Below, piece after piece: positions 21,316-36,961 of a stretch of 64,000 nt of DNA. A model generated the notes under the pieces. That model saw nothing but the letters and a program-made list of their open reading frames with translations, was not told where the DNA came from and did not search any database. The number at the start of each line of letters is the position of its first letter. Position 1 is the stretch's first letter. The position numbers and the translations under genes are program-made. Source of the stretch: Escherichia coli (GTDB lineage: Bacteria > Pseudomonadota > Gammaproteobacteria > Enterobacterales > Enterobacteriaceae). The stretch lies in NCBI RefSeq assembly GCF_003334785.1, contig NZ_QOWV01000002.1; one strand, given 5' to 3'.

Positions 21316-22473
21316 ATGGAGCGCAACGTCACGCTCGATTTTGTTCGCGGCGTCGCCATTCTGGGGATCCTGCTATTAAACATCAGCGCCTTTGGGCTAC
21401 CAAAGGCGGCTTATCTCAATCCCGCCTGGTACGGTGCTATTACGCCGCGGGATGCATGGACTTGGGCATTTCTTGATCTCATCGGCCAGGTGAAATTCCT
21501 CACGCTTTTTGCGCTACTGTTTGGTGCGGGCCTGCAAATGTTGCTGCCCCGTGGCAGACGCTGGATCCAGTCGCGGTTAACGCTGTTAGTCTTGTTGGGC
21601 TTTATTCACGGTTTATTGTTCTGGGACGGCGATATTTTGCTGGCTTACGGGCTGGTGGGCTTAATCTGCTGGCGGCTGGTGCGCGATGCGCCATCGGTAA
21701 AAAGCCTGTTTAATACAGGCGTCATGCTTTATCTGGTGGGGCTTGGCGTTTTGCTGTTATTGGGGCTGATTTCCGACAGCCAGACCAGCCGCGCCTGGAC
21801 GCCGGATGCATCGGCTATTTTGTATGAAAAATACTGGAAGCTTCACGGCGGCGTTGAAGCGATCAGTTATCGTGCCGATGGTGTTGGCAACAGTTTACTG
21901 GCACTGGGCGCACAGTATGGCTGGCAACTGGCAGGGATGATGCTCATTGGTGCGGCGCTGATGCGCAGCGGCTGGCTGAAAGGGCAGTTCAGCTTACGTC
22001 ACTATCGTCGTACTGGTTTTGTGCTGGTGGCGATTGGGGTGACCATTAACCTTCCTGCCATCGCCCTGCAATGGCAGCTGGACTGGGCGTATCGCTGGTG
22101 TGCCTTCTTACTTCAAATGCCGCGGGAACTGAGTGCGCCGTTTCAGGCGATTGGCTATGCGTCGCTGTTTTATGGCTTCTGGCCGCAATTGAGCCGCTTT
22201 AAGCTGGTGCTTGCGATCGCCTGCGTCGGACGGATGGCGCTGACCAACTATCTATTGCAAACGCTGATTTGTACCACGCTTTTTTACCACCTCGGTTTGT
22301 TTATGCATTTTGACCGCCTGGAGCTGCTGGCGTTTGTTATTCCGGTATGGCTGGCGAATATCCTCTTCTCTGTTATCTGGCTGCGTTACTTCCGCCAGGG
22401 GCCGGTGGAATGGCTCTGGCGTCAGTTAACTTTGCGTGCTGCCGGACCGGCAATATCTAAAACATCAAGATAA
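21316..22473 (+). CDS. yeiB: DUF418-family inner membrane protein
   Basis: 385-aa hydrophobic ORF immediately downstream of folE. Confidence 0.88.
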   Translation: MERNVTLDFVRGVAILGILLLNISAFGLPKAAYLNPAWYGAITPRDAWTWAFLDLIGQVKFLTLFALLFGAGLQMLLPRGRRWIQSRLTLLVLLGFIHGLLFWDGDILLAYGLVGLICWRLVRDAPSVKSLFNTGVMLYLVGLGVLLLLGLISDSQTSRAWTPDASAILYEKYWKLHGGVEAISYRADGVGNSLLALGAQYGWQLAGMMLIGAALMRSGWLKGQFSLRHYRRTGFVLVAIGVTINLPAIALQWQLDWAYRWCAFLLQMPRELSAPFQAIGYASLFYGFWPQLSRFKLVLAIACVGRMALTNYLLQTLICTTLFYHLGLFMHFDRLELLAFVIPVWLANILFSVIWLRYFRQGPVEWLWRQLTLRAAGPAISKTSR

Positions 22474-33897: not shown

Positions 33898-34845
33898 ATG
33901 CGTGTGTTACTGGCACCGATGGAGGGAGTGCTTGACTCTCTGGTGCGTGAATTGCTGACCGAAGTTAACGACTACGATCTGTGCATCACCGAGTTTGTCC
34001 GCGTGGTGGATCAACTGCTGCCGGTAAAAGTCTTTCATCGCATTTGCCCTGAGCTACAAAACGCCAGCCGGACACCATCTGGTACGCTGGTGCGCGTGCA
34101 GTTGTTAGGTCAGTTCCCACAATGGCTGGCAGAGAACGCCGCCCGTGCGGTGGAGTTAGGTTCCTGGGGCGTGGATCTCAATTGCGGCTGCCCGTCGAAA
34201 ACGGTTAACGGTAGCGGCGGCGGGGCGACGTTACTCAAAGATCCTGAACTCATCTACCAGGGTGCAAAAGCGATGCGTGAAGCTGTACCGGCGCATTTGC
34301 CCGTCAGCGTGAAAGTGCGTCTGGGCTGGGACAGCGGTGAGAAGAAATTTGAAATCGCCGATGCGGTTCAACAGGCTGGCGCTACGGAGCTGGTGGTGCA
34401 TGGGCGGACGAAAGAGCAGGGTTACCGCGCGGAGCATATTGACTGGCAGGCGATTGGCGATATTCGCCAGCGGCTGAATATTCCGGTGATTGCCAACGGT
34501 GAAATCTGGGACTGGCAGAGCGCGCAACAATGCATGGCGATCAGCGGCTGCGACGCAGTGATGATTGGTCGCGGGGCGCTCAATATTCCCAACCTGAGCC
34601 GGGTGGTAAAATATAACGAACCGCGAATGCCGTGGCCGGAGGTGGTTGCTTTGCTGCAAAAATATACCCGTCTGGAAAAGCAGGGCGATACCGGGTTATA
34701 TCACGTTGCGCGGATTAAACAGTGGTTGAGTTATTTGCGTAAAGAATACGATGAAGCAACGGAATTATTTCAGCATGTTCGGGTGTTGAATAATTCCCCT
34801 GATATTGCAAGGGCTATTCAGGCAATTGATATCGAGAAACTCTAA
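33898..34845 (+). CDS. dusC: tRNA-dihydrouridine synthase C
   Basis: ORF from ATG at 33898 ([13 protein letters not shown]...), Dus-family TIM barrel. Confidence 0.92.
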
Positions 34846-34892
34846 AAAACCATAGTGATGTTTTTTGACAATGTGTTAGCTCTTTATCAATA

Positions 34893-35130
34893 GGCCGCAC
34901 GGTTGTTTGGTGGCGTCAAAATTGCCGAGGCGTTCCCTGAAGGCCGGGGCAGCCCACATGGATGTGGGCTGAGGGCGCGTTTTACAGGGATGTTACCTCG
35001 CGCCCGACCCGGTAGCCGTAAGGGATAAGTCGAGGGCACCGCGCAGCGGCGATTTTGTTCGCCAGAGCCCGGGGGTGCAGGGGGCGGCGGCGATTGGCCG
35101 CCCCCTGCGCGCTCCTTGCGCCAGTGATTA
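34893..35130. other. GC-rich, palindrome-dense intergenic element (unclassified)
   Basis: About 240 bp of high GC flanked by AT-rich DNA; perfect inverted repeats CAGCCCACAT-GG-ATGTGGGCTG, GGGCGCG-N19-CGCGCCC and GCAGGGGGCGGC-N8-GCCGCCCCCTGC. Confidence 0.5.
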
Positions 35131-35217
35131 TATGAAGCAATGCACATGACAGGAGCGCAACAGGATGAGAGACTGAAATATTCTCGTTATTTTCGGACCT
35201 GATGACATTAATTAATT

Positions 35218-35301
35218 TTAAAATATCATCTTAAATACGCCAGTCACCACCAGTAGCCCAATCAGGAAAATAATCAATACAGCCCAGAGTATAATTTTCA
35301 T
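35218..35301 (-). CDS. yohP: Small hydrophobic membrane protein (27 aa)
   Basis: Reverse-complement translation MKIILWAVLIIFLIGLLVVTGVFKMIF, below the ORF-track size cutoff; recognised from memory as YohP. Confidence 0.75.
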   Translation of the reverse strand: MKIILWAVLIIFLIGLLVVTGVFKMIF

Positions 35302-35524
35302 TGGCGTTCCTTTATTTGTGAGTGCTGAATAAGTATAGGAAAAAACGAAGCCCTTTGCCGTTATCCATAAACGATTAAGATAAATCGGAAGATATCATTC
35401 ACTTAGTGTATATTTTTCTGGATATGTCGTTTTATTGCCACTGATGTATTGCCACGCGAAACTAAAAAATATATCGCAACACACGGTAATCTCCGCGCAC
35501 CTTTTCTTACCTGATTATTCCCCC

Positions 35525-36961
35525 ATGAATCGTGATTCCTTTTATCCAGCCATCGCCTGTTTTCCGCTGTTACTGATGCTGGCCGGGTGTGCGCCTATGC
35601 ATGAAACCCGCCAGGCGTTAAGCCAGCAAACGCCCGCTGCACAAGTTGACACCGCATTACCCACGGCGCTGAAAAATGGTTGGCCAGACAGCCAATGGTG
35701 GCTGGAGTATCACGATAATCAACTCACTTCCTTAATTAACAATGCACTACAGAACGCACCGGATATGCAGGTGGCTGAACAGCGCATTCAGCTAGCTGAA
35801 GCCCAGGCGAAGGCAGTTGCCACTCAGGATGGTCCGCAGATCGACTTTTCGGCGGATATGGAGCGGCAAAAAATGTCGGCAGAAGGCTTAATGGGGCCGT
35901 TTGCTCTGAACGATCCGGCCGCAGGTACGACCGGCCCGTGGTACACCAACGGTACTTTTGGCTTAACGGCGGGCTGGCATCTCGATATCTGGGGAAAGAA
36001 TCGGGCGGAGGTTACTGCCCGCCTGGGTACGGTTAAAGCACGGGCGGCGGAACGCGAGCAAACCCGCCAATTGCTGGCTGGCAGCGTAGCCCGCCTGTAC
36101 TGGGAGTGGCAAACCCAGGCGGCGTTAAACACGGTCTTGCAGCAAATAGAAAAAGAGCAGAACACCATTATCGCGACCGATCGCCAGCTATATCAGAACG
36201 GGATTACTTCTTCAGTTGAAGGTGTGGAAACCGATATTAATGCCAGCAAAACCCGGCAGCAGCTCAACGATGTCGCGGGGAAAATGAAAATTATTGAGGC
36301 ACGGTTAAGCGCACTTACAAATAACCAGACAAAGTCATTGAAGCTTAAACCGGTCGCGTTGCCGAAAGTGGCAAGCCAGCTTCCTGATGAACTGGGGTAC
36401 TCCTTACTGGCCCGGCGGGCAGATTTGCAGGCGGCGCACTGGTACGTTGAGTCATCGCTAAGCACCATTGATGCGGCAAAAGCGGCATTTTATCCTGACA
36501 TCAACCTGATGGCCTTCCTGCAACAGGATGCGTTGCACTTAAGCGATCTGTTCCGTCATTCCGCGCAGCAAATGGGCGTTACGGCAGGCCTGACGCTACC
36601 CATTTTCGATAGTGGTCGTCTTAACGCCAATCTCGATATCGCAAAAGCCGAAAGCAACTTGTCTATCGCCAGCTACAACAAAGCGGTGGTTGAAGCGGTG
36701 AATGACGTGGCGCGGGCAGCCAGTCAGGTTCAGACACTGGCGGAGAAAAACCAGCATCAGGCGCAAATTGAGCGCGATGCCTTGCGTGTGGTAGGTCTTG
36801 CGCAGGCGCGCTTTAACGCGGGCATCATTGCTGGTTCCCGCGTCAGCGAAGCCAGAATCCCCGCGCTGCGTGAGCGGGCCAATGGCCTGTTATTGCAAGG
36901 GCAGTGGCTGGATGCCTCCATTCAACTCACTGGTGCGTTGGGCGGGGGTTACAAACGCTGA
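35525..36961 (+). CDS. mdtQ: Outer membrane efflux lipoprotein (NodT/OprM family), apparently intact
   Basis: 478-aa ORF from MNRDSFYPAIACFPLLLMLAGC (lipobox LAGC); the uninterrupted frame extends further upstream to 35435. Confidence 0.85.
   Translation: MNRDSFYPAIACFPLLLMLAGCAPMHETRQALSQQTPAAQVDTALPTALKNGWPDSQWWLEYHDNQLTSLINNALQNAPDMQVAEQRIQLAEAQAKAVATQDGPQIDFSADMERQKMSAEGLMGPFALNDPAAGTTGPWYTNGTFGLTAGWHLDIWGKNRAEVTARLGTVKARAAEREQTRQLLAGSVARLYWEWQTQAALNTVLQQIEKEQNTIIATDRQLYQNGITSSVEGVETDINASKTRQQLNDVAGKMKIIEARLSALTNNQTKSLKLKPVALPKVASQLPDELGYSLLARRADLQAAHWYVESSLSTIDAAKAAFYPDINLMAFLQQDALHLSDLFRHSAQQMGVTAGLTLPIFDSGRLNANLDIAKAESNLSIASYNKAVVEAVNDVARAASQVQTLAEKNQHQAQIERDALRVVGLAQARFNAGIIAGSRVSEARIPALRERANGLLLQGQWLDASIQLTGALGGGYKR

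Follow-up and report, generated by a model that had tools for sequence, protein, structure and literature searches.

A GC-rich element between dusC and yohP of a K-12-like Escherichia coli strain is the known repeat TRIP1c (RRS-dusC), with a covarying fold, invariant hairpin loops and variable orientation

In this study, we analyzed a 64,000-nt stretch of Escherichia coli DNA (hereafter the window; contig NZ_QOWV01000002.1 of assembly GCF_003334785.1) with respect to a GC-rich, palindrome-dense element in the 372-bp spacer between two convergent genes, dusC (+ strand, open reading frame (ORF) ending at 34845) and yohP (35218-35301, minus strand); mdtQ starts past yohP, at 35525. The element is the known repeat TRIP1c, alias RRS-dusC ("replication risk sequence"), a rediscovery and not a new element, and comparison with its relatives indicates a fold under selection. 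A first-pass annotation, made from the sequence alone, had described a GC-rich island between AT-rich flanks at 34893-35130 with three perfect inverted repeats. The island was borne out, with GC content of 0.60-0.72 over 34900-35100 against 0.32-0.38 in the flanks, and a repeat finder reproduced all three repeats at the coordinates claimed for them: 10-nt arms with 2 nt between them (I4, 34950-34959/34962-34971), 7-nt arms with 19 nt between them (I14, 34973-34979/34999-35005) and 12-nt arms with 8 nt between them (I2, 35077-35088/35097-35108). It also returned a long-range pair of 16 nt (34917-34932/35042-35057) and a pair of 8 nt (I9, 35109-35116/35151-35158). The proposed 3' limit did not hold, because an extra conserved helix (35111-35116/35151-35156) closes the 3' end, and the repeat unit reaches from ~34895 to ~35161-35168; the stop codons of dusC and yohP lie 50 bp before its start and 57 bp past its end. 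The sole long ORF across the element is, as had been noted, a low-complexity frame (86 aa, Pro/Gly/Arg-rich, minus strand, 34887..35147). A search for further copies within the 64-kb window returned only the self-match and 13-nt chance matches.

The repeat TRIP1 was named by Rudd (1999), and Li et al. (2024), in a survey of 6725 genomes, gave TRIP1c as 273 bp long, 43 bp after the stop of yohI (dusC) and upstream of yohG (mdtQ). The same arrangement was found here, since dusC ends at 34845, the element starts at ~34895, and yohP and then mdtQ lie beyond. The 222-bp RRS-dusC and RRS-lysO were described by Pham, Cox, Goodman and colleagues (2023/2024; PMC10287960, PMC11194060), and RRS are also treated in a preprint of Kusi-Appauh et al. 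(2026). The highly identical partner copy, TRIP1a or RRS-lysO, lies between lysO and aqpZ; BLAST against it spans 34897-35168 at 94.5% identity (272 bp). Pairwise alignment delimited a near-perfect core of 220 bp (34907..35126, + strand), which equals the published 222-bp RRS-dusC and has a single mismatch (34923) to the lysO-aqpZ copy of MG1655. In K-12, the two copies flank dif at ~650 kb on either side. The published 20-nt motif GGGGGTGCAGGGGGCGGCGG (quoted from PMC11194060), a putative G-quadruplex, matched the + strand exactly at 35071..35090, and no match was found on the minus strand. The element was 100% identical to that of K-12 J53 and 99.6% identical to most K-12 records, and matches were found in all 5426 complete E. 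coli genomes, at a median of 3 places per genome (range 1-8). The window aligned to MG1655 2,226,000-2,234,000 at 99.96% identity in the reverse direction, and no annotation was found at the position of the element in MG1655. Flanking GC skew on the + strand of the element was +0.0335 +/- 0.0105. The locus lies in the left replichore and the window is reversed relative to MG1655; together with the skew, this makes the G-rich (+) strand the lagging-strand template, as is also stated in the RRS papers.

Thus locus, sequence, length, G-rich motif, replication strand and lysO-aqpZ partner are all those of the published repeat, and no difference bears on its identity. The sole base difference from MG1655 within the element is T for C at 35030, which makes a helix-3 G-C pair into G-U; the lysO-aqpZ copy also carries T, and this would fit gene conversion between the two repeats. 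As a whole, the element is best explained as TRIP1c/RRS-dusC, a strongly self-folding repeat with a published gap-triggering mechanism, and we assign this reading a probability of roughly 0.85. The first-pass annotation had offered four interpretations, namely a structured small RNA (sRNA), a 3' untranslated region element of dusC or yohP, a different repeat family, or a mobile-element remnant. The repeat family proved correct, with copies in every complete E. coli genome searched and a published name and function, and the remaining options were not established. It had also conceded that near-identical copies of a known repeat family would reduce the element to just a repeat; such copies were found, though this repeat is unusually well studied. 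It has been named since 1999, and since 2023 experiments have supported a role for it in the programmed triggering of post-replication gaps on the flanks of the Ter domain.

The whole unit (34895..35161, + strand; ~2,229,388 down to ~2,229,122 in MG1655) was delimited with an alignment (A2) of 21 family members from E. coli, Escherichia albertii, Pseudocitrobacter, Klebsiella pneumoniae, Klebsiella aerogenes and Citrobacter freundii, in which conservation stops at ...AGGAGCGCAAC, position 35161. Its two ends (ACAAACCGCAC... and ...GGAGCGCAAC) do not form an inverted repeat. Minimum-free-energy and consensus folds both predicted a Y-shaped domain (34901..35071, + strand), whose outer stem consists of the helices 34901-34915/35060-35071, 34918-34924/35050-35056, 34925-34931/35029-35035 and 34934-34937/35022-35025 and surrounds two hairpins with conserved loops. 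Hairpin 1 (34950..34971, + strand) has the stem CAGCCCACA/TGTGGGCTG and the loop motif CATGGATG at 34957-34964. Hairpin 2 (34973..35005, + strand) combines an outer stem GGGCGCG/CGCGCCC with an inner mini-stem AC/GT that displays ACAGGGATGT. Beyond the Y-shaped domain lies a GC hairpin (35076..35109, + strand) with a 12-bp stem and an 8-nt loop, extended to TGCA...TGCG, and its 5' arm is overlapped by the published G-rich motif. The unit closes with a conserved 3'-terminal stem-loop, GCTCCT...AGGAGC (35111..35156, + strand), which mimics a Shine-Dalgarno sequence plus ATG, yet AGGAG belongs to the 3' arm of the helix. In a diverged subfamily, a CGTTCAC...GTGAACG helix stands at the same position in place of GCTCCT...AGGAGC.

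TRIP1c is predicted to be structured beyond chance expectation. The RNA fold of the 274-nt unit reached -138.9 kcal/mol on the + strand, where shuffled sequences gave -116.2 +/- 5.3 (z -4.3; none of 200 folded as well), and -125.4 kcal/mol on the minus strand (z -4.5); with DNA folding parameters, the two-hairpin segment 34940-35012 gave z -5.5. The RNAalifold consensus of the 21 members comprised 71 pairs, and at least one compensatory double change was found at 37 of them. Such pairs changed on both sides numbered only 14.4 +/- 2.4 in shuffled alignments (0 of 500 reached 37) and 6-13 with slid partners; likewise, 96.6% of cells formed a standard pair, against 88.4% in shuffled alignments and 35-44% with slid partners. 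As judged from these sequences, the TRIP1 fold is conserved pair by pair and kept by selection. In the outer stem, helices 1-4 were 90-100% paired, with compensatory changes at 17 pairs. Every helix of the first-pass annotation is also supported by covariation. In hairpin 1 (helix 7), five of nine pairs covary, one of them being A-U in 11 members, G-C in 9 and C-G in 1, and in hairpin 2 (helices 8 and 9) the inner pair is A-U in 11 and G-C in 9. The GC hairpin (helices 11 and 12) shows compensatory changes across species (G-C 13/A-U 8 and G-C 15/A-U 4), as does the 3' stem-loop (helix 14; C-G 17/U-A 4, C-G 17/A-U 4 and C-G 12/U-A 5).

The family keeps two fixed loops, CAUGGAUG and CA(R)GGAYG, which resemble CsrA-binding sites and the TwoAYGGAY motif. 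The hairpin-1 loop CATGGATG is unchanged in all 21 members, and the second loop holds CA(R)GGAYG with few exceptions. Wobble pairs were biased to the G-rich strand (58 G-U against 14 A-C cells, from only about ten and five alignment columns), and therefore the relevant folded single strand would be the + strand, as RNA or as single-stranded DNA (ssDNA). The RRS and TRIP1 papers report neither invariant GGA loops nor covariation, and they do not say how Klebsiella copies are oriented to replication; our comparative results on fold covariation, invariant loops and orientation are new as far as the literature shows.

According to the published gap model, a fork unwinding the element would allow the G-rich strand to fold into a putative G-quadruplex amid dense hairpins. 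The lagging-strand polymerase would halt at this folded strand and leave behind a gap of Okazaki size (up to 2 kb), loaded with SSB and RecA; the RRS authors propose that the transient gap may provide a topological swivel close to where the Ter domain ends. RecA and SSB were found on lagging-strand ssDNA over 1.4-2.5 kb from each RRS, and the peak was gone on deletion of the element (Pham et al.). On the lagging-template strand, the G-rich site brings Pol I, II and IV to a stop, and the complementary strand blocks far less (PMC11194060). Relocated RRS still provoke gaps, both RRS are deletable only alongside a large amplification or after substitution by inverted copies, and deletion or inversion of RRS alters genome-wide supercoiling (RRS papers). 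In addition, single-molecule work in the 2026 preprint found a gap at essentially every replisome encounter with the G-rich strand as lagging template, and more rarely in the opposite orientation. Identity, boundaries, strand and selected fold come from our analysis, and stalling, gaps, co-deletion limits and supercoiling are taken from the literature. The published gap account is the best-supported role of the element in this strain. It does not fully explain the conservation of the fold, and the comparative data make it doubtful that gap formation is the property kept by selection in the whole family.

Several observations weigh against the published gap mechanism as an account of the family. 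A regular-expression scan for a canonical G-quadruplex (four runs of at least 3 G, spaced by 1-7 nt) found none in the window copy, and the pattern was absent from 19 of the 21 family members; the published prediction rests on two G5 runs plus two GG runs (PMC11194060). The G-rich run pairs with the C-rich arm of the same hairpin, and the two arms covary. A term search of the main text of the 2024 RRS paper found no tests of cation dependence, circular dichroism or G-quadruplex mutants. The hairpin alone cannot, however, account for the published strand-specific polymerase block, because as DNA it forms on both strands with about equal predicted stability (-21.9 and -20.7 kcal/mol for 59-nt segments). 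Furthermore, the gap model assigns no role to the two invariant hairpin loops, and inverted RRS in laboratory constructs gave no RecA or SSB peak.

Orientation relative to replication was likewise not conserved in the family. A joined-flank query found K-12-type flanks at dusC-yohP in 3299 of 5424 complete E. coli genomes, and the remaining ~39% were arranged otherwise. In the two genomes examined, JJ1886 (ST131) and an O157:H7 strain, the element is inverted at dusC-yohP; the ST131 and O157:H7 spacers differ from the K-12 type and are 98.7% identical to each other. For dusC-yohP, Li et al. (2024) counted 2952 forward and 2789 reverse copies, and the aqpZ-lysO copy also occurs in both orientations among E. 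coli. Members of the family lie in at least eight different spacers in Klebsiella. Flanking GC skew over ~40 kb, taken on the element strand, was negative at six of the eight loci (-0.018 to -0.040, in every case by 2.3 standard errors or more), positive at one (+0.0425, lagging template) and non-significant at the other. At the negative-skew loci the G-rich strand is on the leading-strand template, and synteny with K-12 agrees where the loci are placeable. Thus the E. coli inversions, the Klebsiella skew and the inverted constructs indicate that the family does not conserve the orientation in which gaps form efficiently. The remaining value of the element lies in this tension between gap model and conserved fold, together with the unexplained invariant loops, the scatter in Klebsiella and the variable orientation.

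A rival reading takes the element chiefly for a structured RNA, or for a ligand site in single-stranded nucleic acid, which would form the 3' end of the dusC transcript and whose Y-shaped domain would show two GGA loops to a dimeric RNA-binding protein such as CsrA. Its purpose would then be mRNA 3'-end stability or protein titration, and the gaps in K-12 a side effect of a stable fold. We consider this quite unlikely, even though 37 of 71 pairs covary while CAUGGAUG and CA(R)GGAYG stay constant. Both loops present GGA in a predicted hairpin loop, as in CsrA-type sites: hairpin 2 (UUACAGGGAUGU) agrees with 11 of 12 positions of RUACARGGAUGU, the CsrA consensus from SELEX (PMC7652899), and hairpin 1 (CCACAUGGAUGU) with 9 of 12, keeping the ACA, GGA and GU elements that are nearly universal according to the same review. 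Two GGA loops per copy are, however, far below the ~18 CsrA subunits per CsrB, and the hairpin-1 stem has 9 bp, whereas SELEX ligands mostly have at most 4 contiguous pairs (PMC7652899). The Rfam family TwoAYGGAY (RF01731) matched the + strand at 34917-35054 with 29.7 bits (E 0.048), under the gathering score of 43 bits, and Klebsiella copies did not reach E <= 1. A diverged Pseudocitrobacter paralogue that can be aligned helix for helix with TRIP1 scored 49.2 bits; this match covers the two-hairpin core only (L037:2218-2281), and it is the sole copy above the gathering score. The wobble bias (58 against 14) and a fold ~13 kcal/mol better on the + than on the minus strand favor the + strand, yet compensatory change and a G-T wobble bias are equally expected of a fold used as ssDNA. 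With regard to transcription, each copy lies directly 3' of the stop codon of some gene, and no intrinsic terminator for dusC or yohP was predicted anywhere in the spacer, which makes read-through into the element plausible, and for the same reason the TRIP1c repeat may be an end point of both transcripts. The K-12 lysO-aqpZ copy, on the other hand, is antisense to both neighbours and lies behind the aqpZ terminator. A promoter and terminator scan found neither within the element, and a promoter-like site at 35202-35229 was within chance expectation. Both dusC and ybjE are marked 'No' for crosslinking-immunoprecipitation sequencing (CLIP-seq) and for the Edwards, Kulkarni and Sowa sets of CsrA targets, and none of the listed CLIP peak coordinates starts with 22290-22293, 9150 or 9152 (the prefix 9151 was left out of this check); a negative CLIP result is also expected from a poorly expressed transcript. 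A pattern scan for the two-loop module (ACATGGATGT-N10-30-ACARGGAYGT, one genome per species) returned at least 120 loci, mostly in Gammaproteobacteria and often several per genome. Hairpin 1 was lengthened by at least 4 further pairs in 66% of the pattern sites listed, against 2% by chance, and many sites are predicted to be Y-shaped, with long outer stems that vary between copies in one genome yet stay complementary. These loci were retrieved by the loop pattern itself, and their likeness to TRIP1 is one of design and does not prove homology. A broader proposal, which we hold to be rather improbable, is that the selected property is the Y-fold showing two invariant GGA loops to a sequence-specific ligand and not a lagging-strand G-quadruplex; RRS would then be the enterobacterial members of a wider gammaproteobacterial dual-GGA-loop class (TwoAYGGAY-like, CsrA/RsmA-type) acting as RNA or as protein-bound ssDNA, with the K-12 gaps as a consequence in one orientation. 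If the loops do bind protein or act in RNA, the RRS phenotypes (co-deletion limits and supercoiling changes) would need reinterpretation.

A selfish or neutral dispersed repeat, either mobile but non-autonomous or spread by recombination or horizontal transfer, would need no selected host function at all; it would accumulate in tolerant spacers after genes, like REP and BIME, and the K-12 phenotypes would be incidental. This too is unlikely in our view. Its dispersal is evident from the 1-8 copies per E. coli genome, the five E. coli loci of unequal frequency reported by Li et al. (2024), the extra loci found at asmA-yegH and at mdlB-glnK in Pseudocitrobacter, and the at least eight distinct Klebsiella loci plus one tandem duplication, with 13 matching places in one chromosome-sized K. 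pneumoniae record (CP125156.1, labelled plasmid in PLSDB). Moreover, orientations are opposite between strains at three loci (dusC-yohP, aqpZ-lysO and yegH-asmA), the yegH-asmA spacer of K-12 contains a truncated relic, and identity in Kluyvera is near 100% despite a much lower genome identity (Pham et al.). Copy-number variation, orientation polymorphism, relic and tandem duplication suggest past movement or recombinational spread, and dispersal and orientation polymorphism make a mobile-element remnant possible. The hallmarks of a mobile element were nevertheless absent. Inspection of four junction types revealed neither terminal inverted repeats nor a target-site duplication, and no recurrent transposase or integrase was found near related elements; clustering of the ORFs around 128 dual-loop elements (up to 2.5 kb away) showed recurrence of housekeeping families only, such as ABC-F ATPases and a large putative FadE-like membrane protein. 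There were 0 matches in 50,697 phage records. Of the 34 'plasmid' matches, several were in megabase-sized records, and those inspected lay amid chromosomal housekeeping genes. An empty dusC-yohP site was not found in 50 sampled genomes by a joined-flank query, all of them having an insert of 233-390 bp. Compensatory evolution and invariant loops also indicate selection on the fold and not decay, and loss of both copies reportedly requires a compensating amplification. As for a small protein, encoded either by the 86-aa minus-strand ORF (34887..35147) or by a tiny ORF after AGGAG...ATG at 35151-35178, we see practically no chance of it. The ORF is present, and an AGGAG followed by ATG does stand at the 3' end. 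Within the ORF, however, several single-base indels separate Klebsiella from E. coli copies (alignment columns 110, 114, 137 and 150), substitutions are paired across helices with no codon pattern, and AGGAG makes up the 3' side of a covarying helix, so both coding readings were rejected; the short ORFs past AGGAG are also wholly different between copies (MRD*, MMNQHITTS* and MLNTNIELKIPL*).

Two further candidates were set aside. In K. pneumoniae Z0117KP0003 a prophage adjoins a copy, which had raised the prospect of a prophage attachment site, but the junction lies ~50 bp beyond the element. A match to the AgvB sRNA on the minus strand at 35135-35195 (22.9 against 56 bits, E 0.18) was treated as chance.

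TRIP1c/RRS-dusC was also compared with other known systems. TwoAYGGAY (Weinberg et al., 2010) likewise has two adjacent hairpins in an outer stem, which covaries in TRIP1, and loop 1 of the window copy, AUGGAU, fits AYGGAY, whereas loop 2, AGGGAU, has a purine at the Y position and TRIP1 has ~120 more structured bases (the GC hairpin and terminal stem-loop). CsrA binding by TwoAYGGAY is a published prediction of Gardner and colleagues only. Among the pattern-scan matches listed, two Lachnospiraceae loci exceeded the TwoAYGGAY gathering score, with 93.8 and 72.6 bits. With CsrA sites and the sponges CsrB, CsrC and Rsm, the element shares loop GGA motifs with flanking ACA...GU, here 28 nt apart; it differs from CsrB and CsrC in having only two loop GGA sites and a long rigid hairpin-1 stem, and neither promoter nor terminator was found. 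REP/BIME elements are also GC-rich, palindromic and multi-copy, lie 3' of stop codons, often between convergent genes, in either orientation, and BIME-2 is likewise linked to chromosome topology. Their sequence is unrelated, and TRIP1 is ~270 bp long with 3 copies in K-12, compared with ~35 bp and hundreds of copies. Neither naRNA4 nor another REP-derived Rfam family matched at E <= 1 in 34000-36000 (the REP consensus was not aligned directly), and these families do match true REPs at other loci (L037 and L010). The RRS authors cite the G-quadruplex of Neisseria gonorrhoeae pilE as the only other bacterial G-rich gap trigger; it is a single locus serving antigenic variation and not a dispersed 270-nt repeat of many helices.

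Several copies of the family were unusual in their arrangement. In K. pneumoniae CP125156.1, a 437-bp unit bearing the element is present in tandem duplicate (L126:1064-1278 and 1501-1715). The K-12 yegH-asmA spacer (MG1655 ~2,139,490-2,139,700; L137:5490-5700) holds a 5'-truncated relic of a diverged TRIP1-like subfamily, without the two GGA hairpins and in the opposite orientation to a full copy in the corresponding spacer of E. coli SCPM-O-B-8794 (L058:8804-8988, minus strand); this locus is not among the five TRIP1 loci of Li et al. (2024). At mdlB-glnK of Pseudocitrobacter faecalis, two members stand head to head (L037:1865-2137, minus strand, and L037:2150-2400, + strand), one E. coli-like (87.6% identical) and the other strongly diverged in sequence with the same helices. 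In two E. coli genomes the dusC-yohP insert is ~41 bp shorter (span 710 against 751), which indicates an internal deletion variant of TRIP1c.

The pattern scan also uncovered multi-copy Y-shaped two-loop elements (ACAUGGAUGU and ACARGGAYGU) in Marinobacter (L040, L074, L075, L117, L121 and L123-L125), Xanthomonadales (L014, L015, L023, L050, L054-L056 and L066-L069), Shewanella (L007, L024, L025, L034, L035 and L079-L084) and Pseudomonas saliphila (L028-L032). Their outer stems of 20-30 bp are wholly unlike between copies of one genome, each perfectly self-complementary (z to -10.5), and none of these elements had an Rfam match at gathering score. In an uncultured Thalassotalea and a gammaproteobacterial metagenome-assembled genome (L070:12805-12895, L118:7972 onward, L119 and L120), the two GGA hairpins take turns in tandem arrays that repeat every 51-53 nt; these arrays resemble sponge RNAs of the CsrB/Rsm type and matched no Rfam family at gathering score. 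Across several genera, dual-GGA-loop elements recur beside a large putative FadE-like membrane protein (L031, L040, L046, L054, L074, L075 and L113) and beside ABC-F ATPase genes (L102, L114, L117, L121, L124 and L125), and a K. pneumoniae copy 3' of the ABC-F gene ybiT shows the same neighbour pattern. Such recurrent neighbours may point to locus-specific cis-acting roles.

Finally, two minor features of the window concern the genes on either side. Directly 3' of the dusC stop, at 34844-34866, there is an A/T-rich 7-bp inverted repeat described as A/T-only (AAAAAAC...GTTTTTT) and nothing else like a terminator. On the far side of yohP, mdtQ is an intact ORF of 478 codons (35525-36961), whereas in MG1655 it is annotated as a 1436-bp pseudogene; compared with MG1655, the window has one extra A in a run at ~35672 and differs (T/G) at 36949, and these changes leave the frame intact, so that the source of the window is a K-12-like strain other than MG1655.

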